Source: Polyangia bacterium (GTDB lineage: Bacteria > Myxococcota_A > Polyangia > Palsa-1104). From it: a stretch of 64,000 nt of DNA. Both the position numbers and the translations under genes were made by a program. Below, in pieces: positions 2,659 to 20,040 of the stretch. The notes under the pieces were generated by a model. The model saw only the letters and a list, made by a program, of their open reading frames with translations, had not been told where the DNA came from and searched no databases. The first letter of the stretch is position 1. Each line of letters begins with the position of its first letter. Location: contig JBDTCO010000006.1 in assembly GCA_039923495.1 (NCBI GenBank), positions 35,066 to 99,065 on the forward strand. The letters run 5' to 3'.

Positions 2659-5426
2659 TGAAGGCGCTCGCGCTGTCGCTGCTCGTCGGGCTCTGCGCCT
2701 GCGAGGGAGCACCCCCCACGTGGTCGGCGGTGACCCCGGCCCCGCTCGCCGAGGCGCTGCTCTCGGTCGGCGGCACGAGCGCGAGCGACGTGTGGGCGGT
2801 CGGGTCCGACAAGGGCTCGGGTCCGATCGTCCTGCACTTCGATGGCAGCACCTGGTCGCGCATCGCGACCAACACACGCGGCACGCTGTGGTGGGTCCAC
2901 GCCTTTGCCGATGGCACCGTGTACGCCGCGGGCGCGGGCGCCACGATCCTGCGCTGGGACGGCACCGCGTTCTCGCGCATGACCACACCCGGACTCGCCG
3001 CAGCGACGGTGTTCGGGGTGTGGGGCCGCAGCCCTTATGACGCATATGCCGTCGGTAGCGTCTCGGGCCGCGACGGCTTCGTGTGGCACTGGGATGGGAC
3101 CACGTGGGCAGTCGTCGACGTTCCGCACGACCTGCGCGGCGACACGAGCGAGGCCCCTGGCTTCTTCAAGGTCGCGGGCGATGCGACACATGTGTTCGTC
3201 GTCGGCGCGCACGGCAACCTCTTGCAACGCGACGGGGACGGCCCGTTCTCGCCGATCGCGACGGCCACCACGGACACGCTCTACACGGTGGCCACCGATG
3301 GCGATCACCACGCAGAGGTGGGTGGCGGCGCGACGGGCGTGCTCATCGATGACGCGCGAACCTCGACCCCGGTCGACGCGGGTCTTTTGCAAGGCCTCGC
3401 GTTCGGGCCGGGCGGCGCGGCGATCGCCACCGGCGCGGACGGCGCGATCTACGAGCGCTCGTCGAGCGGGTGGGCACGTCAGCACACCGGCCTTGCGATG
3501 AACATCGAGTCGCTGCACGCCGCCTGGATCGATCCTGACGGCGGTCAGTGGGCGGTCGGTGGCAACGTGCTGTCCTCGAGCCTCGACGGCGGCGTGTTGC
3601 TCCACCGCGGCGCGACCATCGCTGGCTACGCGGAGGTGCTCCCCGACATGGGTCCGCCGTCCACCGCGTGTCCCGAGGACCAGATCGATCCCCAGCCCGA
3701 GCGCTCGATCGCGCGCCGCTGGGACGAGCAGATCCTCGGCGCGATTCGCAGGGACGTGCCGCGCCCGACCGTGCACGCGCGCAACCTCTTCCACGTGTCG
3801 GCCGCGATGTGGGACGCGTGGGCCACGTACGACACCGTGGCAGATGGTGTGTTCTTCCACGAGCGTCACGTCGGCGCGCAGGTCGACCGCGAGCAGGCGC
3901 TCAGCTACGCGGCCTATCGCCTGCTCCAGCACCGCTACACGGGACAGGTCGGCGGCGCGGTGTCCAACGCGTGCTTCGACGCGTTCTTCGCGCGGCTCGG
4001 GTACGACGCGACGATCACCACCCCCGACGGAGATGCTCCGGCCGCCATCGGCAATCGCATCGCCGCGACGATCATCGCTGCGACCGTGGACGACGGCGCG
4101 AACGAGGCGAACAACTACGCCGACGAGACGGGCTTCGTCGCCGCGAACCCTCCGCTCTTCATCGATCTGCCCGGCACGACGATGACCGCTCCGGACGAGT
4201 GGCAGCCGCTCAACCTCGCGGTGGCCGAGACGCAGAACGGCCTCCTCGTCAGCTCCGGCGTGCAGTCGTACGTGGGCTCGAACTGGGATCGCGTCACGCC
4301 GTTCTCGCTCTCGCGTCCGTCGTCGGATGTGGCGTACTTCGACACCGGTCTCACGCCGACGGCCGCGCAGCCGGAGATGAAGGACTGGCTCGTCGACGTC
4401 CTCTCGAAGCAGGCGTGGCTCGATGCGAGCGACGGCGTCACGGTCGATCTGTCACCGGGCACGCTCGGCAACGACACGCTCGGCACCAACGATGGGCATG
4501 GTCGCGCGCTCAACCCGATCACGGGCGCGCCGTACGTTGCGCAGCCTGCGCTGCGTGGAGACTTCGGTCGCGTGCTCGCGGAGTTCTGGGCCGATGGTCC
4601 GAGCTCGGAGACGCCGCCGGGCCACTGGAACGTCATCGCCAACCAGGTGACCGATAGCGCGGGGTTTGCGCGTCGGCTCGGCGGCACCGGTGCATCGCTC
4701 GAGCCGCTCGAGTGGGACGTGAAGGTCTACCTCGCGCTCAACGGCGCGGTGCACGACGCGGCGATCACGTCGTGGGGAACGAAGCGCCGCACCACGACCG
4801 CGCGGCCGATCTCGCTCATCCGCTACATGGCCGGACTCGGTCAGTCGTCGGACCCGTCGCTGCCGCACTACGATGTGAACGGCCTCCCGCTCGTGTCCGG
4901 GCTCATCGAGCTCATCACGCCGCAGAGCTGCGCGCCGGGGCAGCGTCACGCACGGCTCGCGCGCCACACAGGGGAGCTCGCGATCTTCGCGTGGCGCGGC
5001 GAGCCCGGAGATCGCGTGCACCAGACGGCCGGCATCGGCTGGGTGCGCGCGCTCGAGTGGCTGCCGTATCAGCGCCGCACGTTCGTGACGCCGGCGTTCC
5101 CCGGCTTCACGTCGGGACACAGCACGTTCAGTCGCGCGGCCGCCGAGGTGCTCACCACGCTCACCGGCAGCGAGTACTTCCCCGGCGGCCTCGGGCAGTA
5201 CATCGCCAAGCAGGGCAGCCTCAAGTTCGAGGAAGGACCGACCGCGGATGTGCACCTGCAGTGGGCCACGTACTACGACGCCGCCGATCAGGCCGGACAG
5301 TCTCGTCTGTGGGGCGGCATCCACCTCGCGTCCGACGACTTCATCGGCCGGATCACAGGCAGCCTCGCGGGCAAGGCTGCTACCGCGCTGGCGATGAAGT
5401 TCTTCGCCGGCACCGCGCTTCCGTAG
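2655..5426 (+). CDS. lipoprotein with N-terminal WxDG-repeat beta-propeller-like region and C-terminal vanadium-haloperoxidase/PAP2-type domain
   Basis: Start GTG 2655 or ATG 2658 overlaps the upstream stop (GTGATGA); signal peptide MMKALALSLLVGLCAC; repeated W-DG-T-W blocks; C-terminal motifs K-x6-RP (KRRTTTARP), PGFTSGHS and SRLWGGIHLASD fit the PAP2/vanadium haloperoxidase signature. Confidence 0.65.
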   Translation: MMKALALSLLVGLCACEGAPPTWSAVTPAPLAEALLSVGGTSASDVWAVGSDKGSGPIVLHFDGSTWSRIATNTRGTLWWVHAFADGTVYAAGAGATILRWDGTAFSRMTTPGLAAATVFGVWGRSPYDAYAVGSVSGRDGFVWHWDGTTWAVVDVPHDLRGDTSEAPGFFKVAGDATHVFVVGAHGNLLQRDGDGPFSPIATATTDTLYTVATDGDHHAEVGGGATGVLIDDARTSTPVDAGLLQGLAFGPGGAAIATGADGAIYERSSSGWARQHTGLAMNIESLHAAWIDPDGGQWAVGGNVLSSSLDGGVLLHRGATIAGYAEVLPDMGPPSTACPEDQIDPQPERSIARRWDEQILGAIRRDVPRPTVHARNLFHVSAAMWDAWATYDTVADGVFFHERHVGAQVDREQALSYAAYRLLQHRYTGQVGGAVSNACFDAFFARLGYDATITTPDGDAPAAIGNRIAATIIAATVDDGANEANNYADETGFVAANPPLFIDLPGTTMTAPDEWQPLNLAVAETQNGLLVSSGVQSYVGSNWDRVTPFSLSRPSSDVAYFDTGLTPTAAQPEMKDWLVDVLSKQAWLDASDGVTVDLSPGTLGNDTLGTNDGHGRALNPITGAPYVAQPALRGDFGRVLAEFWADGPSSETPPGHWNVIANQVTDSAGFARRLGGTGASLEPLEWDVKVYLALNGAVHDAAITSWGTKRRTTTARPISLIRYMAGLGQSSDPSLPHYDVNGLPLVSGLIELITPQSCAPGQRHARLARHTGELAIFAWRGEPGDRVHQTAGIGWVRALEWLPYQRRTFVTPAFPGFTSGHSTFSRAAAEVLTTLTGSEYFPGGLGQYIAKQGSLKFEEGPTADVHLQWATYYDAADQAGQSRLWGGIHLASDDFIGRITGSLAGKAATALAMKFFAGTALP

Positions 5427-5478
5427 CGCTACTTACCGCCGCGCTGGTACTTCGTCACCGCCGCCTCGTGGGACGATC

Positions 5479-5503
5479 GAGGGGGACGTTCCCGTTCCCC
5501 CTC
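5479..5503. terminator. GC-rich hairpin between convergent genes (candidate bidirectional terminator)
   Basis: gagggggacgttcccgttccccctc forms a 7-bp stem gaggggg/ccccctc between the stops at 5426 (+) and 5560 (-). Confidence 0.4.
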
Positions 5504-5559
5504 CAGCAGCAAAGCTGCCGGAGCCTTCCCCCACCGCGCGTTTCTCGCGCGAGTCAGCG

Positions 5560-6651
5560 CTACTTACCGCCGCGCTGGTACTTCGTCACCGCCGCCTCGT
5601 GCTCTGCCACGGTCTTCGAGAAGTAGTGCGTGCCGTCGTTCTTCGACACGAAGTACAGGTACGGCGTGTCGTCGGGCTCGATGGCCGCGAGCAGCGCGGC
5701 GCGGCCGGGGTTCGAGATGGGGCCGGGCGGCAGCCCCGTGTGCTGGTACGTGTTGTACGGGTTGTCCTTGTCGTCGAGCTGCGCCCTGCGGAGGCGGCCC
5801 TCGAAGGTCGCGCACGCGGCGCTCTTGTCCTTCGGCACGGTGCAGCCGTAGACGATGGTGGGATCGGTCTGCAGCACGTGCGGCACGAACGTCGGCAGCC
5901 GAAGGCGGTTGTAGAAGACGCCGGCGATGCGAGGGCGCTCGTCGACGGCGGCGGTCTCCTTCTCGACGAGCGACGCCATGAGCACGAGCTCGCGATCGTC
6001 CATCTTGTCGAGCTTCGCGCGCAGGGCGACGGACTTGGCGTGCGTGGCCTTGAGGGCGTCGAAGACCTCGTGCGCGCGCCTCACGAGCGCGGTCGCGATG
6101 CGCAGCGCCGACGTCCCGCGAGGGAACCTGTACGTGTCGGGGAAGAGGTAGCCCTCGAGCGTCGGGCCCGGCACCCCGAGCCGCTGCGCCACCTGCGGAT
6201 CGCGCGCGACCTTCTCGAAGTCCTCCTTCGCGCACACGCCGGCCTCGTCGAAGAGCTCCGCGACCTGCACGAGGTTCTTGCCCTCGGGCAGCGTGACGGC
6301 GACCTCCTCGACGGGGACGCCCTCGATGAGCCGCGCGAGGATCTCGGACGGCGTCATGCTCGACGACAGCACGAACTGCCCCGCCTTCACCTTCTGAGAG
6401 AGGCCGCGCTCGTTCGCGTAGAAGCGGAACCAGCTCGGGTGCGTGATGAGCTTGGAATACGCGAGCCGGCGCGCGATCACCGCGAGCGTCGTGCCGCGCT
6501 CGATGATGATCTTCGCCTCGACGGCCGGCCCCGGCATCGCGCGCGACGGATACGACAGCGCCTGGTATGCGATGGCGCCCGCACCTGCGAACAGCGCCAC
6601 GGCGCTGAGTCCGACGACGATCGCCGCCTTCTTCTGATCAGCCACGCTCAC
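5560..6651 (-). CDS. mltG: endolytic murein transglycosylase MltG (YceG family)
   Basis: 363 aa with N-terminal TM anchor and a YceG-like body; 4-nt overlap with upstream ruvX, the conserved ruvX-mltG arrangement. Confidence 0.85.
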   Translation of the reverse strand: MSVADQKKAAIVVGLSAVALFAGAGAIAYQALSYPSRAMPGPAVEAKIIIERGTTLAVIARRLAYSKLITHPSWFRFYANERGLSQKVKAGQFVLSSSMTPSEILARLIEGVPVEEVAVTLPEGKNLVQVAELFDEAGVCAKEDFEKVARDPQVAQRLGVPGPTLEGYLFPDTYRFPRGTSALRIATALVRRAHEVFDALKATHAKSVALRAKLDKMDDRELVLMASLVEKETAAVDERPRIAGVFYNRLRLPTFVPHVLQTDPTIVYGCTVPKDKSAACATFEGRLRRAQLDDKDNPYNTYQHTGLPPGPISNPGRAALLAAIEPDDTPYLYFVSKNDGTHYFSKTVAEHEAAVTKYQRGGK

Positions 6652-7115
6652 TCCGGATCTCCATCATCCACCATGCTGGCACCGCGCTTCGTGTCGAGCC
6701 ACGCCGTGAGGATGACCTGCGCGGCCATGGAGTCGATGAGCTCCTTGCGACGCGCGCGCGACAGATCGGCCTCCATCAGCGTGGACGTGGCCTCCACCGT
6801 CGAGAAGCGCTCGTCCTGCGTCTCGACCGCGAAGCCCGCCTGCACGAGCGCGTCGATGAGCACGCGCACGCGGACCGCGCGGGGCCCCTCGTTGCCGTCG
6901 AGATCGTAGGGCATGCCGACGACGAGGGAGCGCGTCGAGTACTGCTTCGCGAGCTGCTCGACCTGCACGACGTCGCCACGCGTGCCCTTGCGATCGAGCG
7001 TCTTTATCGCGTGCGCGCACACGTTCAGCTCGTCGGTGACCGCGATGCCGATGGTCTTCGAGCCCACGTCGAGACCGAGCACGCGACCGGGTGGGAGTGC
7101 GGAGGGAGACGCCAC
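6648..7115 (-). CDS. ruvX: Holliday junction resolvase-like protein RuvX/YqgF
   Basis: 155 aa; VLGLDVGSKTIGIAVTD RNase H-fold motif typical of YqgF; overlaps mltG by 4 nt. Confidence 0.85.
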   Translation of the reverse strand: MASPSALPPGRVLGLDVGSKTIGIAVTDELNVCAHAIKTLDRKGTRGDVVQVEQLAKQYSTRSLVVGMPYDLDGNEGPRAVRVRVLIDALVQAGFAVETQDERFSTVEATSTLMEADLSRARRKELIDSMAAQVILTAWLDTKRGASMVDDGDPE

Positions 7116-7181
7116 GCGACCGCGTTATACGACAGCGCCCGCGCCTTGACAGCACCCGGCGCGTCGGTAGGCTCCGAAGTC

Positions 7182-7478
7182 ATGAGCGACGACGGCCAGA
7201 AGGCGGGTTCGCCTCGGATCCAGCTCCACATGGACGACTCGGTGTCGCAGGGGACGTACTCGAACCTGGTCGTGATCAACCACACCGAGAACGAGTTCGT
7301 CGTCGACTTCGCATATCTTCAGCCCCAGAGCCAGCACGCCAAGGTGCGCTCGCGCATCATCTCGAGCCCGCGCCACACGAAGCGCATGCTGCTCGCGCTG
7401 CAGAAGAACCTCGAGCGCTACGAGGCCCGCTACGGGGTCGTCGAGCTCTCCACCGACGACGACCCCATCATTCACTGA
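7182..7478 (+). CDS. DUF3467-family small protein
   Basis: 98 aa from internal Met of ORF 7011..7478; IQLHMDDSVSQGTYSNLVVINHTENEFVVDFAYLQP...AKVRSRIISSPRHTKRMLLALQKNLERYE matches DUF3467; divergent from ruvX. Confidence 0.6.
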   Translation: MSDDGQKAGSPRIQLHMDDSVSQGTYSNLVVINHTENEFVVDFAYLQPQSQHAKVRSRIISSPRHTKRMLLALQKNLERYEARYGVVELSTDDDPIIH

Positions 7479-8344
7479 GCAGCGGGCTCGAGGAACGTGA
7501 GCCGGCCAGGCTCCACCCGCACGCGGGCGCCGTGTGCGAGCGCGCGGTTGCGGGAGCCGTGACCGACGGGCAGCCCCGTCAGGATCGGGACGCCGAGCCC
7601 GCGCAGGCGCTCGGTCACGACCTCGAGCGCCGTCGGGCCTTCGGGTGCGTTGCAGTCCACGAGGTCACCGACCACGATGGCCACCACGCCGTCGAGCGCG
7701 CCGGTGAGGAGGAGCTGCGTGAGCTGGCGATCGATGCGGTACGGTCGCTCGCCGATCTCCTCGAGCAGCAGCACGTTGCCGCGCAGGGCGTAGGCCCACG
7801 GCGTGCCGACGAGGCTCGAGACGAGCTCGATGTTTCCCCCGACCAGGCATCCCTCGACGGTGGCCGAGGTGCCGGCGGAGTCGAGGCCCACGATCGGCGC
7901 GCCGAGGCTGCCTTCGAGCAGCGCCCACAGCGATGAGACGTCGTCGTCGGGAAGCTCGCCGAGCTGCGTGACGACCGGGCCGTGGACGCTGCGGACGCCG
8001 GCGCGTGCCATGACCGCGTGCAGCGCCGTGACGTCCGAGAAGCCGACGACGAGCTTGTCGGTGACCGGGGCCAGCCTGGCAAGGAGCCGCATGAGCCCGT
8101 AGCCGCCGCGCGCGCAGACGATCGCCTTTGCGTCGCTCGCGAAGGCGGCGTCGAGCTCGGCGAGGCGCGCGTCGTCGCCGCCCGCGAGGTAGCCGGTGCG
8201 CTCGAAGATGCGCGGCGTCGAGCGGACGTCGTAGCGTGCAGCGAGGCGCTCGAGCCCCGCTCGGTAGCGCGCCTCGGGGACGGGCCCCGATGGTGCGACG
8301 ACGACGATCGGATCGCCGGGCCGCAGCGCGGTGGGTGCGCGCAT
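7472..8344 (-). CDS. ldcA: LD-carboxypeptidase (peptidase S66, LdcA-like)
   Basis: Start at internal MRAPTALRPGDPIVVVAPSGP of ORF 7472..8587; nucleophile motif GFSDVTALH plus conserved E and H regions; about 290 aa as expected for LdcA. Confidence 0.75.
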   Translation of the reverse strand: MRAPTALRPGDPIVVVAPSGPVPEARYRAGLERLAARYDVRSTPRIFERTGYLAGGDDARLAELDAAFASDAKAIVCARGGYGLMRLLARLAPVTDKLVVGFSDVTALHAVMARAGVRSVHGPVVTQLGELPDDDVSSLWALLEGSLGAPIVGLDSAGTSATVEGCLVGGNIELVSSLVGTPWAYALRGNVLLLEEIGERPYRIDRQLTQLLLTGALDGVVAIVVGDLVDCNAPEGPTALEVVTERLRGLGVPILTGLPVGHGSRNRALAHGARVRVEPGRLTFLEPAAQ

Positions 8345-8349
8345 GGCGC

Positions 8350-8772
8350 TCAGCGACCGATGATGGTCTTGGCGGGACGACGACGCTTGCGCTTCGGATC
8401 GTCCGTCTTGCCGGAGCTGCCATCGGTGATGGCTTCCGGCGTGTCGGGCTCGGGGACCGGCTCCGCTGCGGCTGCGACGGGTGGCGTCATCGGAGCGGTG
8501 GGGATGTCGTCGATTGGTGTCGGTGTCGTCACGGCTGGCAGCACGGGAGCAGAGGTCGGCACCACCATGCCCTCTGACCAGAGCCACACACCCGACGTCG
8601 TGCCCTCTTCGACACGGGTCACGATGTGGAGCGTCTCGTCGACCAGCAAGGACGTGCCGACGGGCATCGGATCCGGGGTCGCGACGAAGCGCCCGAGTCG
8701 CGCATCTGTTCGCTCGGAGTCCTGGGCGTCTCCGAGCGTGACACCGAAGTAGCGAATCGTGGCCTGGCTCAT
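8350..8772 (-). CDS. hypothetical protein with Pro/Thr-rich linker and basic KRKRRRPAK tail
   Basis: C-terminal 141 aa of ORF 8350..9714 starting MSQATIRYFGV has protein-like composition while the upstream part is Arg/Ala-rich junk; ends 5 nt before ldcA. Confidence 0.4.
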   Translation of the reverse strand: MSQATIRYFGVTLGDAQDSERTDARLGRFVATPDPMPVGTSLLVDETLHIVTRVEEGTTSGVWLWSEGMVVPTSAPVLPAVTTPTPIDDIPTAPMTPPVAAAAEPVPEPDTPEAITDGSSGKTDDPKRKRRRPAKTIIGR

Positions 8773-9012
8773 TGCGGAGTCCACGCTAGCATCGCTGTCG
8801 AGATGGCAAAACTTTTGCGTATTTGCGACCCGGCTCGGCCTGCCGAGGGACCGAGCCGCGAACTCCCGGCAACAGCCCCGTCGTGAATTCTCGTTCACAC
8901 GACAGCACGAGTCGGCTACAAGCAATGGAGACCTTTCGTGTCGTCGGTGGCACGAGCACTGCTCTACTTGCCATCGGTTCTGCCCCGGTCCAACGCTCCA
9001 AGGAGCTCGTTC

Positions 9013-9711
9013 ATGCGGTCCACACTCGCGGTGCTCTCGGTCGTCCTCTTCGCTGCCGGCTGCAACCTCGGCAAGGAGTCGAACTACTCGTTCTGCGACT
9101 CGTCTGGCTGCTACACCTGCGACTCGAACGGTTGTATCGCCGCCACGCCGACCGATCCGAACGGCAACCCGATCGGCGACGGCTACTGCTACCAGGACAG
9201 TGACTGCCCGTCGGACAGCTTCTGCGACAACCGCTCTGGCTACTGCTACCCGGCGTACAGCTGCAGCGTCGACGCGGACTGCGGGCAGGGCATGGTGTGT
9301 GACGGACGGGACACGTGCGTCCCCGGCCCGAGCACCTGCAACGCGACCAGCCCGTGCGCCGAGGGCTGCTACTGTTCGAGCGGCAGCTGTGTGGAGACAA
9401 GCCTGTGCGCCTTCGACTCCGACTGCGAGTACCTCGGCTCGGGCTTCGCGTGCTCGAACGGCACCTGTGCGCCGGTCGCTACCGATGGTGGCACTGCGGA
9501 TGGGGGAACGGCAGACGGCGGCTCCGTCGGCAACAGCGACATGGGCTCGACCGATGGCGGCGTGTCCCCTGACGCCGGTCGCATGGCCTGCACGAGCGAC
9601 GGCGACTGCGCGTCGAGCGAGGTCTGCCACCATGGCTTCTGTCGCACGACGTGCGCCGTCGACTCCGACTGCAGCTCGGGCAAGTGCACGTCGAGCCACG
9701 TCTGCCGGTAA
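9013..9711 (+). CDS. Cys-rich secreted lipoprotein (myxobacterial cysteine-rich repeat type)
   Basis: AGGAG RBS at 9001-9005; signal MRSTLAVLSVVLFAAGC with lipobox; repeated C..DSDC...C...C modules; about 30 Cys in 232 aa. Confidence 0.6.
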   Translation: MRSTLAVLSVVLFAAGCNLGKESNYSFCDSSGCYTCDSNGCIAATPTDPNGNPIGDGYCYQDSDCPSDSFCDNRSGYCYPAYSCSVDADCGQGMVCDGRDTCVPGPSTCNATSPCAEGCYCSSGSCVETSLCAFDSDCEYLGSGFACSNGTCAPVATDGGTADGGTADGGSVGNSDMGSTDGGVSPDAGRMACTSDGDCASSEVCHHGFCRTTCAVDSDCSSGKCTSSHVCR

Positions 9712-10063
9712 CAACTGGGATCACCAGAATGGGGTCGGAAGACTGACTCTACCGATGAGCATCTGGTGAGAAAACTCCCACCGACATCGTCGCAGGTCAT
9801 CCCACCAATCACGACGGAATCGCTCATCCACCCCAACACTTAGCAAGACCTCCCACCTTACCCACATCGTCTCCGGTTGCGGCACAGCGGGTGCACCACC
9901 CCCCCTCGTTGCGAATGCTTCCGGAGGCCCCGTGATCGACAGCTTCGACTCGGACACGTACGTCGACGGTTCCAACAACGACAATCGCAGCGCCGAGGGT
10001 TATTGGCGAAACAGCTGGGAAGTCTCGCTCGATCCCGAGTCGTCTGGCGACGACCAGCCGACC

Positions 10064-11119
<1,056 letters not shown>

Positions 11120-11184
11120 CTCCTCGAGAACCTCTGGCTCGTCGAGAAGCTCTGGGCCGACGAGTCCGGTGATATAAGCGGGTC

Positions 11185-11847
11185 GTGCGACCCTCCCGGA
11201 CGACCGGCGTGGCCGTGGATCTCGTCGTCTTCACCGTCGACGAGGCCGAGCTGCGTGTCGCGCTCCTGCGCATGAAGCGCCCGTCGTTCCTGGGCAAGTG
11301 GGCGCTCCCCGGCGGCCGCATCGGGGACGAGGAGACGGTGGAAGACGCGGCCGTGAGGGAGCTCCGCGAGAAGGTCGGGCTCGACGACGTCTACCTCGAG
11401 CAGCTCTACACGTTCTCGAGGCCCGATCGCGATCCCGACGGTCGCTGTCTCTCCGTCGCCCACATGGCACTCGTGCCGCCGGGTACGGGTTTGCGTACGA
11501 CCGACAAGTACGACGGGGTCGGCTGGTTCTCCGCCCGCAGGCCACCGCAGCTCGCGTTCGATCACCGCGAGATCCTCGCCTACGCCGTGAAGCGCCTGCG
11601 CGGCAAGCTCGCCTACACCAACGTCGCCTACAGCCTCCTGCCCGCCGCGTTCTCGCTCGGCGAGCTGCAGCGGGTCTACGAGACGATCCTCGACGAGTCG
11701 CTCGACCCACGGAACTTCCAGCGCCGCGTCGTGCAGCTCGGCATGGTCGAGGAGACAGGCCATGTCCGCGAGGGCGCGCGCAACCGGCCCGCCCGCCTCT
11801 ACCGCTTCCATTCTCGTCGACCGCACGATCTTCCGGTGCTGTCTTGA
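11185..11847 (+). CDS. nrtR: NrtR-family Nudix-related transcriptional regulator
   Basis: Nudix box GRIGDEETVEDAAVRELREKVGL followed by a C-terminal winged-helix-like domain (LGELQRVYETILDESLDPRNFQRRVVQLG); sits directly upstream of pncA-pncB-nadE. Confidence 0.75.
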   Translation: MRPSRTTGVAVDLVVFTVDEAELRVALLRMKRPSFLGKWALPGGRIGDEETVEDAAVRELREKVGLDDVYLEQLYTFSRPDRDPDGRCLSVAHMALVPPGTGLRTTDKYDGVGWFSARRPPQLAFDHREILAYAVKRLRGKLAYTNVAYSLLPAAFSLGELQRVYETILDESLDPRNFQRRVVQLGMVEETGHVREGARNRPARLYRFHSRRPHDLPVLS

Positions 11848-11878
11848 CGATGTTCATGTATGGATTACAATAAGTACA
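11844..11878 (+). promoter_or_regulatory. sigma-70-like promoter TTGACG-N16-TACAAT with overlapping AT-rich palindrome (candidate NrtR operator) upstream of pncA
   Basis: ttgacg at 11844-11849 (contains the nrtR stop TGA); tacaat at 11866-11871; palindromic tgta-N14-taca at 11857-11878; the only AT-rich island in this region, 16 nt before the pncA ATG. Confidence 0.45.
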
Positions 11879-11893
11879 GGCCCGAGGCCGCCA

Positions 11894-12520
11894 ATGGAAA
11901 CTGCTGACGCGTTGCTCGTCGTCGATCTACAGCCCGACTTCATGCCCGGCGGCGCGCTCGCCGTCAGGGGCGGGGACGAGATCGTCGGCCCCATCTCGCG
12001 GATCGCTGGCCACTTCACGACGGTGGTCGCGACGCAGGACTGGCACCCCCGAGGCCACATCTCCTTCGCGTCGCGCCACGGCAAGCAGTCCTTCTCGAAG
12101 CTCGCACTGTACGGTGGCGAGCAGGCGATGTGGCCCGATCACTGTGTCCAGGGCACGCCGGGCGCCGCGCTGCACCACGGCCTCGATCTCGCGCACGTGA
12201 GCGTGATCCTACGCAAGGGCGCGCGCTGCGACGTCGACTCGTACAGCGCGTTCTTCGAGAACGTCGGCCCCGACGGCAAGCGTCCCTCCACCGGGCTCGC
12301 GGATCTCCTGCGCGCGCGCGGCATCGGGCGCGTGTTCGTCTGCGGCCTCGCTCGTGACGTGTGCGTCGCCGACACCGCCCTCGACGCGGCGGCCGAAGGG
12401 TTCGACGTCACGCTCATCGACGATCTCACGCGCGCGGTGGACGAGGGCAGCCGCGTCCGGGTGGACACGAGGCTGAAGAGCGCCGGTGTGAAGATCGAGA
12501 ACGCGGAGGTGCTCTCGTGA
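11894..12520 (+). CDS. pncA: nicotinamidase (isochorismatase family)
   Basis: METADALLVVDLQPDF..., catalytic D/K/C context (VDLQPDF, ILRKG, FVCGLARDVCV) typical of PncA. Confidence 0.8.
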   Translation: METADALLVVDLQPDFMPGGALAVRGGDEIVGPISRIAGHFTTVVATQDWHPRGHISFASRHGKQSFSKLALYGGEQAMWPDHCVQGTPGAALHHGLDLAHVSVILRKGARCDVDSYSAFFENVGPDGKRPSTGLADLLRARGIGRVFVCGLARDVCVADTALDAAAEGFDVTLIDDLTRAVDEGSRVRVDTRLKSAGVKIENAEVLS

Positions 12521-13932
12521 GCGAGCAGACGCTGACGGTCGACGCGTATCAGCTCACCACGCTCATCGCCCACGCGGACGCGGGCCGCCTCGAGCAGCAC
12601 ATGGCGATGACCGCGTTCTTCCGCAAGCTGCCGGTGAACCGTGGCTACGTCGTCGCGTGCGGGCAGCGCAGCATCGTCGAGCACGCGCGCCAGATGCGCG
12701 TGACGAAGGAAGAGTTCGATGTGCTGTTCACGCACCCGATCATCGGAGAGCGGCTGCGCAGTCGTCCGGCGATCGTCTCCGCGCTCTCGGCGCTCGACGG
12801 CTTCGTGGGCGAGATCGACGCGGTGCCCGAGGGACTGCCGGTGTTCGCGGGCCCGGGTCGTCGCTCCGACGGCACGCCGCTCCTCGTCGATGGTCGACCG
12901 CTCACGCTGTATGCACCGCTGCTGTCGATCCGCACCGACATGCTGCTCGCGAAGATGATCGAGACGCCGTGGCTCTCGCGCCTCAACCATCAGTCGATGG
13001 TCGCGTCGAAGGCCTCGCGCGTCGTGATCGCCGCGAAGGGCAAGCCGGTGCTCGAGTTCGGCGCGCGCCGCACGCAGACCCAGGCGGGGATCGACGCCGC
13101 GTGGGCGGCCGCGGTCGCGGGCTGCACCGGCACGTCGAACATGGCCGCGTGGATGCGCTACGGCATCCCCGCGGTCGGCACCATGGATCACTCCTTCGTG
13201 CAGGCGTCCGAGGAGCCGGGGCTGTCCACCGACGAGAGCGAGCGGCGCGCGTTCGCGGCGTTTCACGCGACCTACGGCGCCTCGGCGACCTACCTCGTCG
13301 ACACCTACGACACCGTGCGCGGCATCCGCAACGCGGTGCGTGCCTCGAACAAGCAGCTCGGTGGCATCCGCATCGACTCCAACGTCACCGTAGCGACCGT
13401 CGCGCAGGCCCGCGCGCTGCTCGACGAGCTCGGCGCGCCGCATGCGAAGATCATCGTGTCCGACGGCCTCGACGAGATGAAGGTTGCCAGGCTCGACGGC
13501 GCCGATGGCTTCGGCGTGGGCGAGCAGATCACGTGCAGCCCCGACTCCGCGACGGGCGTCGGCGCGGTGGCCAAGCTCACGGTGAACGGCTACGGTCGCG
13601 CCACGATGAAGCTCTCGCGCGGCAGCGCCAAGATGACGCTCCCCGGCCGCATCGCCGCGTGGCGCTACGCGGATCACGATCTCGTCGCGATCGACGGCGA
13701 GGCCGTGCCGGCCGGCGGCCGCGCGCTGCTCGAGCCGCTGTGGCGAGGGCGCGGGCCCGTTGTCGAGGAGCCGGCCGCTGCGGCGCTCCATCGTGCACAC
13801 GCGGTGTGTCGGCGCGAGCTCGCCGCGCTGCCCGCTGGCGTGCGCGACCTCGCATCACCCGAGCCGTACCCGCTCGTCGCGTCCGATGCGCTCGTCGACC
13901 TCGTGTCGAGTCGCGTGAAGGAGGCTGCATGA
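12517..13932 (+). CDS. pncB: nicotinate phosphoribosyltransferase
   Basis: GTG start overlapping the pncA stop (GTGA); TLTVDAYQLT and GARRTQTQAG...GTSNMAAW...GTMDHSF blocks align with E. coli PncB motifs (TDAYK, GTRRR, GTSN, GTQAH). Confidence 0.8.
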   Translation: MSEQTLTVDAYQLTTLIAHADAGRLEQHMAMTAFFRKLPVNRGYVVACGQRSIVEHARQMRVTKEEFDVLFTHPIIGERLRSRPAIVSALSALDGFVGEIDAVPEGLPVFAGPGRRSDGTPLLVDGRPLTLYAPLLSIRTDMLLAKMIETPWLSRLNHQSMVASKASRVVIAAKGKPVLEFGARRTQTQAGIDAAWAAAVAGCTGTSNMAAWMRYGIPAVGTMDHSFVQASEEPGLSTDESERRAFAAFHATYGASATYLVDTYDTVRGIRNAVRASNKQLGGIRIDSNVTVATVAQARALLDELGAPHAKIIVSDGLDEMKVARLDGADGFGVGEQITCSPDSATGVGAVAKLTVNGYGRATMKLSRGSAKMTLPGRIAAWRYADHDLVAIDGEAVPAGGRALLEPLWRGRGPVVEEPAAAALHRAHAVCRRELAALPAGVRDLASPEPYPLVASDALVDLVSSRVKEAA

Positions 13933-15818
13933 GGCTCGTCCGCATCGCGCTCGCCAACGTCGACACCATCGTCGGCGCGGTGGCGTCCAACCTCGACAAG
14001 GCCCTTTCGCTCGTGCCGGCTGCCATCGACGACGGCGCCACGGTCCTCGTGTTCCCCGAGCAGCTGCTCTCCGGGTACCCGCCCGAAGATCTCGTGCAGT
14101 GGCGTGGCTTCGTGCACGCGCAGTGGAAGGCGCTCGCCGAGATGGCGCGCGCCACGGCGGATCGACCCATCGCCATCGTGGCGGGCGTGACGGTGCAGCG
14201 CGGCAACGGCCTCTACAACTGCGCGGCGCTCCTGCACCGAGGCCGCATCTGTGGCCTCGTGCCGAAGGAGAAGCTGCCCACCTACAACGTGTTCTACGAG
14301 GGCCGCACGATGAACCGCGGCATCGCGGGGCTCTACGACGAGCTCGAGGGCGTCCCGTTCGGCGACCTCGTCTTCCAGCTCGACTTCGGCACGGTCGCGC
14401 TCGAGATCTGCGAGGACCTGTGGTCCCCCGACGGCCCGATGCGTCGTCGCTGCTACGCGGGCGCCGAGCTCGTGCTCAACCTGTCGGCGTCGCCGTTCCG
14501 GGTCGGCATCGTGGACACGCGGCGCGAGATGATCGCCACACGCGCCGCAGACAACCAGTGCGTCGTCGCCTACACCAACGCGGTCGGCGCCAACGACGGG
14601 CTCATCTTCGATGGCGGTGGCTTCATCGCGCAGAACGGGCGCGTGGTGCACGAGGCCAGGCGCTTCGAGTCGGGCATCACCGCAGCGACGGTCGATCTCG
14701 ATCGCACCGCGCGCCTCCGCGCCGAGAACACGACGTGGCGCAACGATCAGGAGGCCGCGCGCGGCGAGTCAGACAAGGTGCGGCGTATCCGCGTCGAGGG
14801 CGACACCGATCGTCGCGGGCTCACGTACCCTGTGCCCGCGCATGCGAGCTTCTTCCTGCCGTCACCTCCCGAGCCCGAGCCGACCGCGCGCGAGGCGTTC
14901 TGCGAGGAGCTGCTCGATGCGCTCGCCATGGGGATCGGCAGCTACTACGAGAAGGTCGGCGTCTTCGAGACCATCGGGGTCGCGCTGTCCGGTGGCCGCG
15001 ACAGCTTGCTCGTGATGCTGCTGTGCCGTCGCTGGATCGATCGACGCTTCCCCGACGAGGCCGAGGCGAAGGCGCGAAAGATGCTGCGCGCGTTCTTCAT
15101 GCCGAGCCGTTACTCGTCACCCGAGACGCGCGCCGCCGCCATCGAGACCGCCAACGAGGTGGGCGCGGCGCTCGAGATCGTCGACATCGACGAGACGGTC
15201 GCCGTCGAGCTCCTGGCCATCGAGAAGATGCTCCAGCCGGGGGAGACGCTCACGCGCGCCGCGAAGCAGAACATCCAGGCGCGCATCCGCGGGCAGCGGA
15301 TGTGGACGTGGTCGAACGTGGCCGCGGGCCTCTTCCTGCAGACCTCGAACATGAGCGAGAAGGCGGTCGGCTACTCGACCATCGGTGGCGACTCGGAGGG
15401 TGCGCTCGCGGTCATCGCCAACCTGCCGAAGACCGTCGTGAACTATCTGCTCGACTACCTGCTCGAGAAGACGAAGTCGGAGGCCATCCGTCTCACGCTG
15501 CTCAAGCCGGCGTCGGCCGAGCTCGACGAGTCGCAGGAGGACGAGCGCGACCTCATGCCGTTCCCGGTGCTCGACGCGTGCTTCGCGCTGTATGCCGGCG
15601 AGAAGATGACGCCTGGCGAGGTCGCCGAGGTGCTCGCCGTGATGTTCCCCGATCACGACGCCGCGCAGCTCTGTGCCTGGGCCGGGCGCTTCCAGCGCCT
15701 CTTCAACGCATCCATCTACAAGTGGGTGCAGGCGCCGGTGAGCTTGCACGTGGGCAACCTCGATCTCGAGCGCGAGCGCGCGCTACAGCTCCCGGTGGTG
15801 CAGAAGGCGGAGTGGTAG
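13929..15818 (+). CDS. nadE: glutamine-dependent NAD+ synthetase (N-terminal CN-hydrolase domain plus NAD synthetase domain)
   Basis: ATG overlaps the pncB stop (ATGA); nitrilase E-K-C triad (VLVFPEQ, PKEK, ALEICEDLW); P-loop GVALSGGRDS; 629 aa. Confidence 0.85.
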   Translation: MRLVRIALANVDTIVGAVASNLDKALSLVPAAIDDGATVLVFPEQLLSGYPPEDLVQWRGFVHAQWKALAEMARATADRPIAIVAGVTVQRGNGLYNCAALLHRGRICGLVPKEKLPTYNVFYEGRTMNRGIAGLYDELEGVPFGDLVFQLDFGTVALEICEDLWSPDGPMRRRCYAGAELVLNLSASPFRVGIVDTRREMIATRAADNQCVVAYTNAVGANDGLIFDGGGFIAQNGRVVHEARRFESGITAATVDLDRTARLRAENTTWRNDQEAARGESDKVRRIRVEGDTDRRGLTYPVPAHASFFLPSPPEPEPTAREAFCEELLDALAMGIGSYYEKVGVFETIGVALSGGRDSLLVMLLCRRWIDRRFPDEAEAKARKMLRAFFMPSRYSSPETRAAAIETANEVGAALEIVDIDETVAVELLAIEKMLQPGETLTRAAKQNIQARIRGQRMWTWSNVAAGLFLQTSNMSEKAVGYSTIGGDSEGALAVIANLPKTVVNYLLDYLLEKTKSEAIRLTLLKPASAELDESQEDERDLMPFPVLDACFALYAGEKMTPGEVAEVLAVMFPDHDAAQLCAWAGRFQRLFNASIYKWVQAPVSLHVGNLDLERERALQLPVVQKAEW

Positions 15819-15862
15819 CCCGAACGGTAAGGCCGAACGGTACGGCCGAACGGCAACCGGAA
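15819..15862. repeat. three tandem 13-bp direct repeats (ccgaacggtaNgg) immediately after the nadE stop
   Basis: cccgaacggtaagg ccgaacggtacgg ccgaacggcaaccgg read directly from the sequence. Confidence 0.6.
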
Positions 15863-16016
15863 ACGGTAGCGTGCGCTCCGTACGCGACGATCTGGGAGCA
15901 CGACGGTGTCGATGACGCCGCGAACGTGGAGACACGGGTCCACACGTCGCGGAGCGCCTCCTGCAGGATCTCGACCCCGTTTCGTGAGATGTTGCGAGCG
16001 AGGCGGAGGTGAGTGG

Positions 16017-16553
16017 TTGGAGTACGTCAGTCACGATCCGCGCGCCAAGGTGCGCTCACCCGACATCCTCTTTATCGTCGAGTCGTTCCAGTTCGCGCCG
16101 TCCCTCGTCGACGTGCTGCTGAAGAAGCATGGCCTGGACCGCAGCTCGTTCGGCGTCGCCGAGTACGTCCCGCTCCAGAACGCGCTCGACATGCTGAAGG
16201 AGATCGAGGAGCGCGTCGGCCGCGAGAAGCTCCGGCAGCTGGGCAACACGACGGTGGAGGCGGCGATGTTCCCGCCCCAGTTCGTCGACGTCGAGAGCGT
16301 GCTGCTCGCGCTCGACATGATCTACTCCATCAACCATCTCGGAGAGGTGGGTCACTACCACTCGAAGCAGCTCGTCGACGGCGCCATCGAGGTCCGCTGC
16401 GAGACCCCGTATCCACGCGCGTTCGAGCGCGGGGTCATCGAGGGGATCGCGCGCAACCCGAACCTCGTCAAGGGCAAGCGCTACGACGTCGAGTACATCG
16501 AGGGCCCGATGGGTGGGGACCTCAGCTGTACGTGCATCGTGCGGCGCCGCTGA
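16017..16553 (+). CDS. hypothetical protein, tandem paralog A (possibly a Myxococcales paralogous family of about 180 aa)
   Basis: TTG start 6 nt after ggaggtg RBS; 178 aa; near-identical blocks shared with the downstream copy (VRSP..FQFAPSL.DVLLKK, NHLG.VGHYHS.QL.DGAIEVRCETPYP, GVIEG.ARN). Confidence 0.5.
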   Translation: MEYVSHDPRAKVRSPDILFIVESFQFAPSLVDVLLKKHGLDRSSFGVAEYVPLQNALDMLKEIEERVGREKLRQLGNTTVEAAMFPPQFVDVESVLLALDMIYSINHLGEVGHYHSKQLVDGAIEVRCETPYPRAFERGVIEGIARNPNLVKGKRYDVEYIEGPMGGDLSCTCIVRRR

Positions 16554-16564
16554 TCATGGAGTAG

Positions 16565-17081
16565 GTGAGCCGCGACCCGAAGGCGAAGGTGCGATCGCCG
16601 AGCATCCGGTTCCTCGTCGAGTCGTTCCAGTTCGCGCCGTCGCTGATCGACGTGCTGCTGAAGAAGAACAACATCGAGCGCAGCGCCTTCGACTCTCACG
16701 ACTACACGCCGATGCAGAGCGCGCTCGATCTGTTGACGGGACATCGAGGAGCGAGTCGGTCGCGAGAAGCTGCGGCAGATGGGCGCAAACGCGATCCAGG
16801 AAGCGCTGTTTCCACCCGAGCTCGACAGCGTCGAGAAGCTGCTGCTCTCCTTCGACATCGTGTACTCGCTGAACCACCTCGGTGACGTGGGCCACTACCA
16901 CTCGAGGCAGCTCACCGACGGTGCCATCGAGGTCCGCTGCGAGACGCCGTACCCGCACACCTTCGAGCAGGGCGTCATCGAGGGCGTCGCGCGCAACGCG
17001 AGCCTCGCGAAGGTGCGTCGCTACGTCGACGGCCCGATCGGCGGCGACGTGAGCTGCATCTGCACCGTCCGCGCTCGGTAG
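16565..17081 (+). pseudogene. frameshifted tandem paralog B of the 16017..16553 gene
   Basis: ORF 16565..16885 matches the N-terminal half of A and ORF 16779..17081 matches its C-terminal half in another frame; a 1-nt insertion near 16740 (ctgttgacgggacatcgagga versus atgctgaaggagatcgagga in A) breaks the frame. Confidence 0.5.
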
Positions 17082-17100
17082 ACAGAAAGCGCGAGGCGCT

Positions 17101-18063
17101 TCAGTACGCGTCGCGGACCCAGCGGAACGGACGCAGCCGCGCGAGCGTCTCGGCAGACAGCGGGCCGTCGTCACCCGCGGCGCAGTTGTCGTCCACCTGC
17201 GCGTCCGACCGCATGCCGGGGATCACCGTCGAGACGGCGGGGTGCGACAGGCAGTAGCGCAGCGCGCCCTTTGCCATCGTGCCCGCGGCGCTCTCGAGGA
17301 TCGGTCGCATCTTCTCGACGGCGTCGACCGTCTTCGGAAGGAGGTCGCCCGCGAAGTAGTCCGTGCGAAAGTCACCATCCGGGAACTTCGTGTCCTTCGT
17401 GAGCTTGCCGGTGAGCGCGCCCTCGTCGAAGGGCACGCGCGACAGCACGCCGACGCCGTGCTCGAGACACGCGGGAAACAGCTCGTCCTCGGGCGACTGA
17501 TCGAAGATGTTGTGGAAGACCTGCAGCGCGTCGACGCGGCCCGACTTCACGAGGCGCACCGCGCTTCCTGGATCGTGCGAGTTGATCGACACGCCGATGA
17601 ACCGGATCTTGCCGGCCTTCTGCAGGTCCTGCATCGCCGAGAACCACTCGTCCTCGTCGGTCCACGCGTCCGCCCACACGTGGAGCTGCAGCAGATCGAT
17701 GGTGTCGACGCCGAGGTTCACGAGGCTCTTCTCGGCGCAGCGGACGATCCAGTCCGCAGGAAAGTTGTCCGCGAGCTTCGCGCCCGGACGCACCGGCCAC
17801 TGCGACGACTTGGGTGGCACCTTGGTGGCGACGGTGAGCCCCTGGTGCTTGCGCAACACCTCGCCGACGAGCTTCTCGGAGTGGCCGCTTCCGTACACGA
17901 GGGCGGTGTCGATGAACGTGACGCCGTGGTCGACGGCGCGCGAGAGCGCACGTCGCGCGTCGTCGTCGCGCTTGCCACCCCACATGCCGCCGCCGATGGC
18001 CCAGCTCCCGAAGCCAATCTCCGAGACGGAGAGGCCGGTCTTGCCCAGGGTTCGCGTGCGCAT
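17101..18063 (-). CDS. aldo/keto reductase family oxidoreductase
   Basis: Start at internal MRTRTLGKTGLSVSEIGFGSW; AKR signatures (GxxxxDTAxxYG, catalytic K in TKVPP context, C-terminal NADP-binding region). Confidence 0.8.
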   Translation of the reverse strand: MRTRTLGKTGLSVSEIGFGSWAIGGGMWGGKRDDDARRALSRAVDHGVTFIDTALVYGSGHSEKLVGEVLRKHQGLTVATKVPPKSSQWPVRPGAKLADNFPADWIVRCAEKSLVNLGVDTIDLLQLHVWADAWTDEDEWFSAMQDLQKAGKIRFIGVSINSHDPGSAVRLVKSGRVDALQVFHNIFDQSPEDELFPACLEHGVGVLSRVPFDEGALTGKLTKDTKFPDGDFRTDYFAGDLLPKTVDAVEKMRPILESAAGTMAKGALRYCLSHPAVSTVIPGMRSDAQVDDNCAAGDDGPLSAETLARLRPFRWVRDAY

Positions 18064-18165
18064 GAGCGATTCGTACCACGCCGGATAGGGCCGGGCGGGC
18101 TCGAGAAGCTGCGCTGAACCCTTTCCCAACGGGCCGGCTCTCACCGTGGATCGGGAGGGGTTCTC

Positions 18166-18324
18166 ATGTGTCGAAGAGTCGAGTGTTCAGTTTGCAAGAA
18201 GCCCACGTACGCGGGCTGCGGGAAGCACGTGGAGCAGGTGCTTGGGGACGTGCCGACGAAGGAGCGGTGTACGTGTGAGCGCGTGGCTAGCGCAGGCTGG
18301 CTCGCGCGTCTGCTCGGCAGGTGA
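18166..18324 (+). CDS. small Cys-rich (zinc-ribbon-like) protein, 52 aa
   Basis: GGGAGGGG RBS at 18153-18160 then ATG; MCRRVECSVCKKPTYAGCGKHVEQVLGDVPTKERCTCE with 7 Cys and 1 His; below the ORF-track length cut-off; its 3' end overlaps the convergent sigma factor by about 38 nt. Confidence 0.3.
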   Translation: MCRRVECSVCKKPTYAGCGKHVEQVLGDVPTKERCTCERVASAGWLARLLGR

Positions 18325-18991
18325 GCGTGGGGTCGCCCTCGAGGGAACGCGCGGACGCATCGACGACGTCGGCCGGCCTCGCGTCGATGAGAGGTGCGAG
18401 CGCAGCCCGCATCGCGGCGCGCGCGCGGTGGAGTCGGCTCTTCACCGCGTCGACCGACGCGCCAACGACCGCGGCCACCTCGGGTGCGGTGAGGCCCTCG
18501 CCATCGCGCAGGACGAGGACCTCACGCTGCGCGGGATCGAGCGTCGCGAGGGCCCGGAGCATCGCACGCTCGATCTGGCGGCTCGCCGCGGACGCCTCGG
18601 GATCGGGCGCGGACGTGGCGAGGTCGCGGGCCTCGTCGAGCGAAGCCTCGTCGAGCGGCGCGAACTTCGAGCGACGGTGGCGCTTGATGCAGAAGCTGCG
18701 CGCGATCGTGTACATCCACGTCGAGAGCGACGCCCCTCCGCGGAAGTCGCGGATCGTGCGCGCCGCAGCGATGAGCGTCTCCTGCAGGACCTCGCTCGCG
18801 TCCTGTGGGTCGCGACACATGCGCATACCGAACCGATACACGCGCGGCTCGTAGCGGGCGAGGAGTTGCTCCAGCGCACGGCGATCGCCCGTACGACTCG
18901 CGGCCAGCAGCTGTTCGTCGGTGTGCACGAGCGTGGAGTGTAGCCGAACCCGCGGTTTGCGGTACCGGCACGGCCTGTGCTCGATGTCCAC
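18287..18991 (-). CDS. ECF-family RNA polymerase sigma factor
   Basis: Region 2 (LLARYEPRVYRFGMRMCRDPQDASEVLQETLIAA) and region 4 (LTAPEVAAVVGASVDAVKSRLHRAR); start may be GTG 18928 (VHTDEQLLAAS) rather than ATG 18991. Confidence 0.75.
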   Translation of the reverse strand: MDIEHRPCRYRKPRVRLHSTLVHTDEQLLAASRTGDRRALEQLLARYEPRVYRFGMRMCRDPQDASEVLQETLIAAARTIRDFRGGASLSTWMYTIARSFCIKRHRRSKFAPLDEASLDEARDLATSAPDPEASAASRQIERAMLRALATLDPAQREVLVLRDGEGLTAPEVAAVVGASVDAVKSRLHRARAAMRAALAPLIDARPADVVDASARSLEGDPTLTCRADARASLR

Positions 18992-19043
18992 GTGCGCGTC
19001 CCGATCCCGTGAACGAGTGACAGCATTCGGTTCCGACAGCGGC

Positions 19044-19724
19044 CTAGCTCACGTGCCCGATGCGGATGCGGCGGACGTCGTGCTGCTGCTCGATCTCGGC
19101 GATCAAGTTCTCGAGGCCGAGCTCGCGAGGAAACGTCACGTCGAGCGTGACGTCGAGGTGCCGGTCGGCGACGTGACGATCGTAGCGGAGCGTCGTGAGC
19201 GTCACGCCGCGTGCCCCGAGTGCTGCTGCGATGTCGGCGAGCTTCCCGTCGGGTCCGAGCATGAGCTCGACGTGACGACGGAGCTGGCGGTCGTCCTTGT
19301 CCTCGAAGCGTCGCAGCAAGGTGAGCGCGATGACGCCGCAGACCGTGACGAAGCAGGCGACGGGGTACATCCCTGCGCCGGACGCCATGCCGATGGCGCC
19401 GACCAGCCACAGCCCGGCCGCGGTCGTGAGGCCCTGGATCGAAGTGCCCTGCCGCAGGATCGCGCCACCGGCGAGGAAGCCGATGCCCGTGACGATCGAA
19501 GCCGCGATGCGCGAGGGATCGATCGCGACCAGGTCGGTCGAGTGGTAGTGCTGCGCGAAGACGAAGTTGGTGGAGACCACCATGAAGGTCGCCGACGCGA
19601 GCGCCACGAGCATGTGCGTTCGTAGACCCGCCGGACGACCATGGCGGTCGCGCTCGTAGCCGATGATGCCGCCGAGCGACATCCCGATGACGATGCGAAG
19701 CAGCAACGTGGCGAAGGGTTCCAT
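19044..19724 (-). CDS. mgtC: MgtC/SapB-family membrane protein
   Basis: MEPFATLLLRIVIGMSLGGIIGYERD... multi-TM N-domain plus soluble C-terminal domain typical of MgtC. Confidence 0.75.
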   Translation of the reverse strand: MEPFATLLLRIVIGMSLGGIIGYERDRHGRPAGLRTHMLVALASATFMVVSTNFVFAQHYHSTDLVAIDPSRIAASIVTGIGFLAGGAILRQGTSIQGLTTAAGLWLVGAIGMASGAGMYPVACFVTVCGVIALTLLRRFEDKDDRQLRRHVELMLGPDGKLADIAAALGARGVTLTTLRYDRHVADRHLDVTLDVTFPRELGLENLIAEIEQQHDVRRIRIGHVS

Positions 19725-19784
19725 GACAATTCGTAACGAATCGCTGGCCACGCCGCAACGTCCTTGGCGGTCGACTCAGTGCGC

Positions 19785-20040
19785 GCCGCCGATGTCGACG
19801 GTGCACCACGAACGTGACGAGCGAGGTCGTGGAGACGCCCGCGAGCTCCGTGATGAGGCGGCTGTCCCACCGGCCCTCGAGGACGTACTGCAGCGTCGCC
19901 ATACCGACGGTGAGCAGGCCGATGCCGAAGAGATCGATGGGATCCTTCCGGCTCGCGATGTCGATGAGGTAGCCGCCGATCCTCGGGCCGAGGTGCCGCC
20001 GTGGATGATGACCACGGGTCGTCAGCCCACTTGAAAGGCA
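19785..20040 (-). pseudogene. remnant of an MFS (EmrB/QacA-like) transporter gene, about 85 codons
   Basis: Minus-strand frame reads LGPRIGGYLIDIASRKDPIDLFGIGLLTVGMATLQYVLEGRWDSRLITELAGVSTTSLVTFVVHRR, resembling the TM6-TM7 region of EmrB-type transporters; flanks are occupied by mgtC and the + strand gene at 20066, so only a fragment can exist. Confidence 0.35.

Follow-up and report, generated by a model that had tools for sequence, protein, structure and literature searches.

NrtR boxes are 21-bp palindromes with a GT-N7-AC core, which overlap promoter elements or lie between the promoter and the start codon (PMC2330246). ADP-ribose suppresses the DNA binding of the Synechocystis and Shewanella NrtR proteins in vitro, and the described gene layouts include nrtR-#pncA-pncB in Lactobacillus and <#>pncA-pncB-nadE in Pseudomonas (PMC2330246). 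In P. aeruginosa, NrtR was found experimentally to repress pncA-pncB1-nadE (Okon et al. 2017, cited in PMC6363681). The mycobacterial NrtR binds GTTTTCGA-N7-TCGAAAAC and is released by ADP-ribose (PMC6800001). In their 2008 survey, Rodionov et al. gave NAD regulation in delta-proteobacteria as unknown and had no NrtR regulon from that group (PMC2330246), and our literature search on myxobacterial NrtR found nothing specific. Here, we analysed a 64-kb stretch of DNA from a Polyangia bacterium (the window), in which an nrtR gene is followed by pncA, pncB and nadE.

In the window, a gene for an NrtR-family regulator was found on the plus strand at 11185-11847, with a GTG start and a TGA stop (11845-11847), encoding 220 amino acids. 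Its product matches the Pfam families NUDIX (PF00293, 3.8e-15) and NrtR_WHD (PF21906, 2.3e-22), corresponding to an N-terminal Nudix-like domain and a C-terminal winged-helix DNA-binding domain. Against the NCBIfam model for ADP-ribose-responsive equivalogs (NF050029), the protein scored 136.5 bits, far below the cut-off of 400, indicating that effector specificity is not simply transferable to this NrtR. Judged by its sequence, the protein is thus a member of the family by domain architecture and no equivalog of the NF050029 seed proteins. The closest solved structures, both aligning over the full length, are BtAraR (5bs6, 4.8e-38) and the Shewanella NrtR (3gz5, 1.3e-27). Some family members, among them BtAraR, the best structural match, respond to other effectors. 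The Nudix box reads G44-x5-E50-x7-R58-E59-L60-x-E62-K63-x-G65-L66 and is degenerate, with REL-R-EK in place of REUxEE, the second glutamate of the EE pair being replaced by K63, which is invariant in the clade. Such degenerate Nudix motifs are usual among non-catalytic NrtR proteins (PMC6800001). A side observation concerns codon D83 of nrtR (11431-11433, in an R-D-P motif), which is GAT instead of GAC in 13 of 17 orthologues at a GC3 of 0.93, so that GATC or CGATC is conserved at this place.

Directly upstream of nrtR and co-directional with it lies a gene for a Ser/Thr protein kinase (9932-11119; Pkinase, 9.3e-45), and the gene at the same place in the Myxococcales metagenome-assembled locus L001, whose product ends in YIEDV before the stop, appears related to it. 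The spacer between the kinase gene and nrtR contains an extended -10-like element, TGaTATAAG (plus strand, 11170-11178), ending 6 nt upstream of the nrtR GTG, and there is no clear Shine-Dalgarno sequence before this GTG. A stretch around the element, GGTGATATAAGCGGG (11168-11182), is common to the window and L001, the rest of the spacer being different; in more distant orthologous loci GGTGATATAAGCGGG was not seen. This arrangement suggests that TGaTATAAG could be the promoter of nrtR and that the mRNA would be leaderless.

Downstream of nrtR, three genes follow on the plus strand. The first gene of the predicted regulated operon, pncA (11894-12520), encodes a nicotinamidase scoring 176.3 bits against NF008623 (cut-off 174) and matching the Pfam family Isochorismatase. 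The second, pncB (12517-13932), encodes a nicotinate phosphoribosyltransferase (NAPRTase match), and the third, nadE (13929-15818), a glutamine-dependent NAD synthetase with the Pfam domains CN_hydrolase and NAD_synthase. The GTG start of pncB overlaps the pncA stop (GTGA), and the ATG of nadE, preceded by GGAGG, overlaps the pncB stop (ATGA). These overlaps of 4 nt each support a single, translationally coupled operon, which on the assignments above is one for nicotinamide salvage and the last step of NAD synthesis. A longer reading frame with an ATG at 11762 (11762-12520) was rejected as the pncA start, the orthologue alignments beginning at ATG 11894.

The junction of nrtR and pncA holds a sigma-70-like promoter. 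On the plus strand, 11840-11899 reads tgtcTTGACGatgttcatgtatggatTACAATaagtacaggcccgaggccgccaATGgaa, with a -35 hexamer TTGACG at 11844-11849 and a -10 hexamer TACAAT at 11866-11871, both found by direct reading and by a consensus scan. With a 16-nt spacer, inside the usual 16-18 nt, and hexamers near TTGACA and TATAAT, the pair matches the sigma-70 consensus at 10 of 12 positions. It was the only such match on either strand of the region scanned (positions 5000-20000, 15 kb), where shuffled sequence gives 0.6 matches per 15 kb. The nrtR stop codon forms positions 2-4 of the -35 hexamer. The 35-mer at 11844-11878 has a GC content of 0.31 against 0.69 for the window, and it is the sole 35-nt stretch with a GC content of 0.40 or less in all 64 kb. 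A first-pass annotation made from the same DNA had described TTGACG-N16-TACAAT as lying in the region's only AT-rich island, with the nrtR stop inside the -35, and each of these descriptions holds. The promoter lies 23-50 nt upstream of the pncA ATG, and its geometry predicts a transcription start at 11877-11879, 6-8 nt past the -10. A Shine-Dalgarno-like GAGG (plus strand, 11884-11887) stands 6 nt before the ATG, and most orthologues have GAGG or GGAG at the equivalent spot. A terminator scan found no terminator-like site between nrtR and pncA, so that transcription running on from the nrtR promoter may be a second source of operon expression.

To place this junction in a phylogenetic footprint, orthologous loci were collected. 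A scan of a genome collection with the single NrtR protein returned three loci (L001 and two from Thiotrichales), a protein search returned many Polyangia-type NrtR homologues of 60-96% identity, and a metagenome scan with an alignment of NrtR homologues added 80 more loci. The footprint comprises 19 loci from Polyangia/Myxococcales metagenomes that keep the order nrtR-(pncA)-pncB-nadE and whose NrtR proteins are 54-90% identical to that of the window. A GT-N7-AC box was present at the same place in the nrtR-pncA spacer in all 19 syntenic loci, a co-occurrence that is partly built into the sample because the loci were collected by nrtR homology. The 25-bp clade consensus of these loci is ACTTATTGT-N7-ACAATAAGT; the conserved dyad, centred on 11863 in the window, can also be written (A)(C/G)TTATTGT-N7-ACAATAAG(T). 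About 9 of the 19 loci carry a perfect 9+9 palindrome (listed for L010-L015, L017-L019 and L024).

When 14 distinct spacers were aligned, the invariant columns were the -35 TTGA, T11853, G11858, T11859, A11867, C11868, T11871, A11872 and A11873, and those conserved in at least 90% were the -35 C, T11854, T11857, A11869 and T11875. Around 11863 the invariant columns show, for the most part, mirror symmetry, and the mirrored positions include bases of the promoter spacer, where promoters have no sequence requirement. Between AAGT and the start codon, the same alignment showed no conservation. Most of the 19 loci also retain the -35 TTGAC and a TACAAT-like -10 (TACAAT, TACAGT, TACACT, TACATT or TACGTA) at a spacing of 16-17 nt, with weaker or displaced elements in L016 and L020. 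Counting the window, 15 of 20 loci have the nrtR stop within the -35. In L005, a locus without pncA, the promoter and the box stand directly upstream of pncB, suggesting that both follow the start of the operon.

In the window, the predicted operator is the 25-bp dyad TGTTCATGT-ATGGATT-ACAATAAGT at 11851-11875 (both strands), supported by the 19-locus footprint and by a weight matrix. Its 21-bp core spans 11853-11873, with GT at 11858-11859 and AC at 11867-11868. The right half-site, which includes the -10 hexamer, agrees with the clade consensus at 9 of 9 positions. The left half-site, which occupies the promoter spacer, agrees at 5 of 9, and 5 of the 9 palindromic pairs are kept. This degenerate left half is shared with L001, and NrtR affinity may consequently be lower in the window than in relatives. 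A position weight matrix built from 13 distinct orthologous sites, the window excluded, scored 11851-11875 at 31.1 bits (plus strand) and 23.0 bits (minus strand). The second-best site in the 64 kb scored 12.0 bits, and in 50 shuffles of the window the maximum averaged 7.2 bits, the highest being 22.7 bits. The scan found no other NrtR box above 12 bits in the 64 kb and none upstream of nrtR, and hence no evidence of classical autoregulation or of other regulon members within the 64 kb.

The dyad therefore carries the features by which NrtR boxes are described: a GT-N7-AC core in a palindrome of about 21 bp, a location in the regulatory region of NAD genes with overlap of the promoter spacer and the -10, a cognate nrtR whose product combines the Nudix-like and winged-helix domains, and a box at the orthologous position in 19 of 19 syntenic loci. 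Read from sequence and synteny, 11851-11875 is a lineage-specific version of the NrtR box on the pncA promoter. The earlier proposal of a pncA-pncB-nadE promoter at the nrtR 3' end with an NrtR-type operator over its -10 is thus borne out, as a prediction, by conservation across the 19 loci.

Several relatives differ from the window upstream of nrtR. L006 (about 2455-2480), L009 (about 55-80), L016 (2409-2433) and L020 (138-162) have a GT-N7-AC box just in front of nrtR, which would give autoregulation in these loci; the window and L001 have no box there. In L007 and L011-L015, an upstream gene overlaps nrtR instead.

Related boxes also occur beyond the footprint. In distant nrtR clades, with proteins 43-53% identical, TTAGTGT-N7-ACACTAA or TTCGTGT-N7-ACACGAA boxes stand beside nrtR, upstream of nadA, of a gene for a NadM-like Nudix/cytidylyltransferase protein and of nadV (NAMPT). 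They were found on both sides of nrtR, in L002 (560-600 and 1325-1385), L021-L037, L056 and L061. In the Thiotrichales locus L002, both boxes are inside TTGACT-N17-TAATAT promoters; downstream of nrtR this locus has two overlapping boxes (1331 and 1356). The box thus tracks nrtR genes across three sequence clades, its half-sites changing in step with NrtR divergence, and the presence of related boxes beside nrtR and NAD genes indicates that the motif follows both across clades.

Together, these observations lead us to propose that the pncA-pncB-nadE promoter is occluded by NrtR, with ADP-ribose as the probable releasing signal, a reading to which we give a probability of roughly 85%. RNA polymerase with the housekeeping sigma factor would transcribe pncA-pncB-nadE from TTGACG-N16-TACAAT, starting at about 11877-11879. 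An NrtR dimer on 11851-11875 would exclude the polymerase from the spacer and the -10; since the right half-site holds the -10 and the left half fills the spacer, bound NrtR would repress the operon. ADP-ribose, a breakdown product of NAD and a signal of NAD consumption, would bind the degenerate Nudix domain and lower the affinity for DNA, whereupon NrtR release would allow nicotinamide to be recycled and NAD to be resynthesised. In addition, bound NrtR might roadblock polymerases reading through from the nrtR promoter. We infer the binding of NrtR, the repression, the role of ADP-ribose as effector and the transcription start from analogy with the characterized systems.

Other explanations of the conserved dyad were weighed against occlusion by NrtR. 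A strong promoter alone might account for it, the dyad then being incidental to the conservation of -35, spacer, -10 and discriminator. Both hexamers are indeed near consensus and conserved, and the best-conserved half-site coincides with the -10. However, the spacer bases T11853, T11854 and TGT (11857-11859) exactly mirror those on the -10 side, and the perfect 9+9 palindromes of about half the loci are difficult to reconcile with a promoter alone, as are similar boxes in other promoter contexts, upstream of nrtR in L006, L016 and L020 and upstream of nadA, nadM-like and nadV genes in the distant clades. We consider a promoter lacking an operator improbable. The first-pass annotation had instead read the operator as a 22-bp palindrome, TGTA-N14-TACA, overlapping the -10. 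This palindrome does exist at 11857-11878 (both strands; centre between 11867 and 11868), and its single occurrence in the window compares with 0.02 expected by chance. Despite this rarity it was rejected as the operator, since all 19 orthologous loci lack it: its distal TACA (11875-11878) is conserved in 0 of 19, and the sequence 3' of AAGT is fully divergent even in L001, whose NrtR is 90% identical and which departs from the window right after ACAATAAG, losing that TACA. The N14 spacing also misfits the published GT-N7-AC within a 21-bp dyad (PMC2330246). By coincidence the true GT core falls within the left TGTA, and only the first T of the right TACA is part of the conserved box. TGTA-N14-TACA is most simply a chance or partial register outside the conserved dyad, so that the palindrome stands as a feature of the window and falls as a conserved operator; that it is nevertheless what NrtR recognizes is very unlikely.

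The dyad might also belong to NadR, NadQ, NiaR or an unrelated factor encoded elsewhere, as other NAD regulators likewise use AT-rich palindromes and the window displays 64 kb of the genome. Yet it matches neither the NadR consensus TGTTTA-N6-TAAACA (PMC2330246) nor the NadQ consensus ttATRCTCannntGAGYATaa (PMC5343134), and the box tracks nrtR across three clades with matching changes of the half-sites, which leaves little room for a regulator other than NrtR. Being intergenic and palindromic, the dyad could in principle form part of an RNA-level element between nrtR and pncA, such as a terminator, an attenuator or a riboswitch. Against this, there was no Rfam match at E <= 1 and no terminator-like site, the AT-rich dyad has a 7-nt centre and lacks a T-run, and the predicted transcription start is downstream of it, making an RNA element hardly credible. 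Occlusion of the promoter by NrtR remains the reading that we prefer.

Besides the main operator, a weak NrtR-like box was found inside nrtR at 11488-11512 (both strands), where a conserved cluster of rare codons (11491-11508) belongs to TTG CGT ACG ACC GAC AAG TAC, encoding L-R-T-T-D-K-Y (11491-11511). This GT-N7-AC box scores 12.0 bits in the window; at the same codons of 9 orthologous loci (among them L004, L006, L008, L010, L017, L018, L019 and L024) the scores are 12-21 bits. Its distance upstream of the main operator is 331-364 bp. The seven codons keep rare choices (TTG in 14 of 17 loci, CGT in 13, AAA in 9, and also ACT) though the mean nrtR GC3 is 0.93. In 14 of 15 loci the observed codons outscored their synonymous resamples, and of 150 column-permuted, equally AT-rich matrices a single one matched the codon effect, in statistics that rest on sequences related to each other. 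The box may serve as an auxiliary operator that either forms a loop with the main site or stops transcription started at the nrtR promoter, a possibility that we regard as tentative and rather unlikely. If true, it would provide a form of autoregulation for nrtR, which has no upstream box in the window, and would restrict read-through into pncA; with the -10 in a half-site and the stop codon in the -35, this would make an unusually compact overlapping regulatory design.

These results extend the NrtR regulon model to Polyangia/Myxococcales-type bacteria with a concrete operator consensus, which can be used to scan genomes of these groups for further members of the NAD regulon, and the 25-mer with its defined core positions is a testable substrate for binding assays. 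The locus is otherwise an expected case of a well-described mechanism; less routine are how closely the gene end, the -35, the operator and the -10 are packed together, and the possible second box within nrtR.

Compared with the described systems, the locus resembles the NrtR operator family in having GT-N7-AC in a 21-bp dyad over the promoter of NAD genes with nrtR adjoining (PMC2330246). Different from the operators of the 2008 survey, its half-sites are ACTTATTGT and ACAATAAGT, from a Polyangia/Myxococcales clade, and ACTTATTGT-N7-ACAATAAGT appears to be new as a motif, not as a mechanism. Also in contrast to the family, the right half-site here also serves as the -10, and the -35 takes in the nrtR stop. 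The co-directional nrtR with the site between it and its target is shared with nrtR-#pncA-pncB of Lactobacillus casei/delbrueckii and nrtR-#prs-nadV of Shewanella (PMC2330246 Table 1), but those layouts are from other phyla with other motifs, and here the operon includes nadE. The M. smegmatis NrtR has the same N7 between half-sites and a degenerate Nudix motif (PMC6800001). That protein is without hydrolase activity and releases DNA upon ADP-ribose (PMC6800001); its targets are the de novo genes nadABC, and it represses its own gene from a box between divergent genes, whereas the window nrtR has no upstream box. In gene content, the operon corresponds to PA4918-4920, the target of the P. aeruginosa NrtR (PA4916), which has the same pncA-pncB-nadE composition. 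In Pseudomonas, however, the operon is divergent from nadD2-nrtR and the box is among the most divergent of the family (PMC2330246), whereas in the Polyangia locus the genes are co-directional and the predicted box has the canonical GT-N7-AC core.
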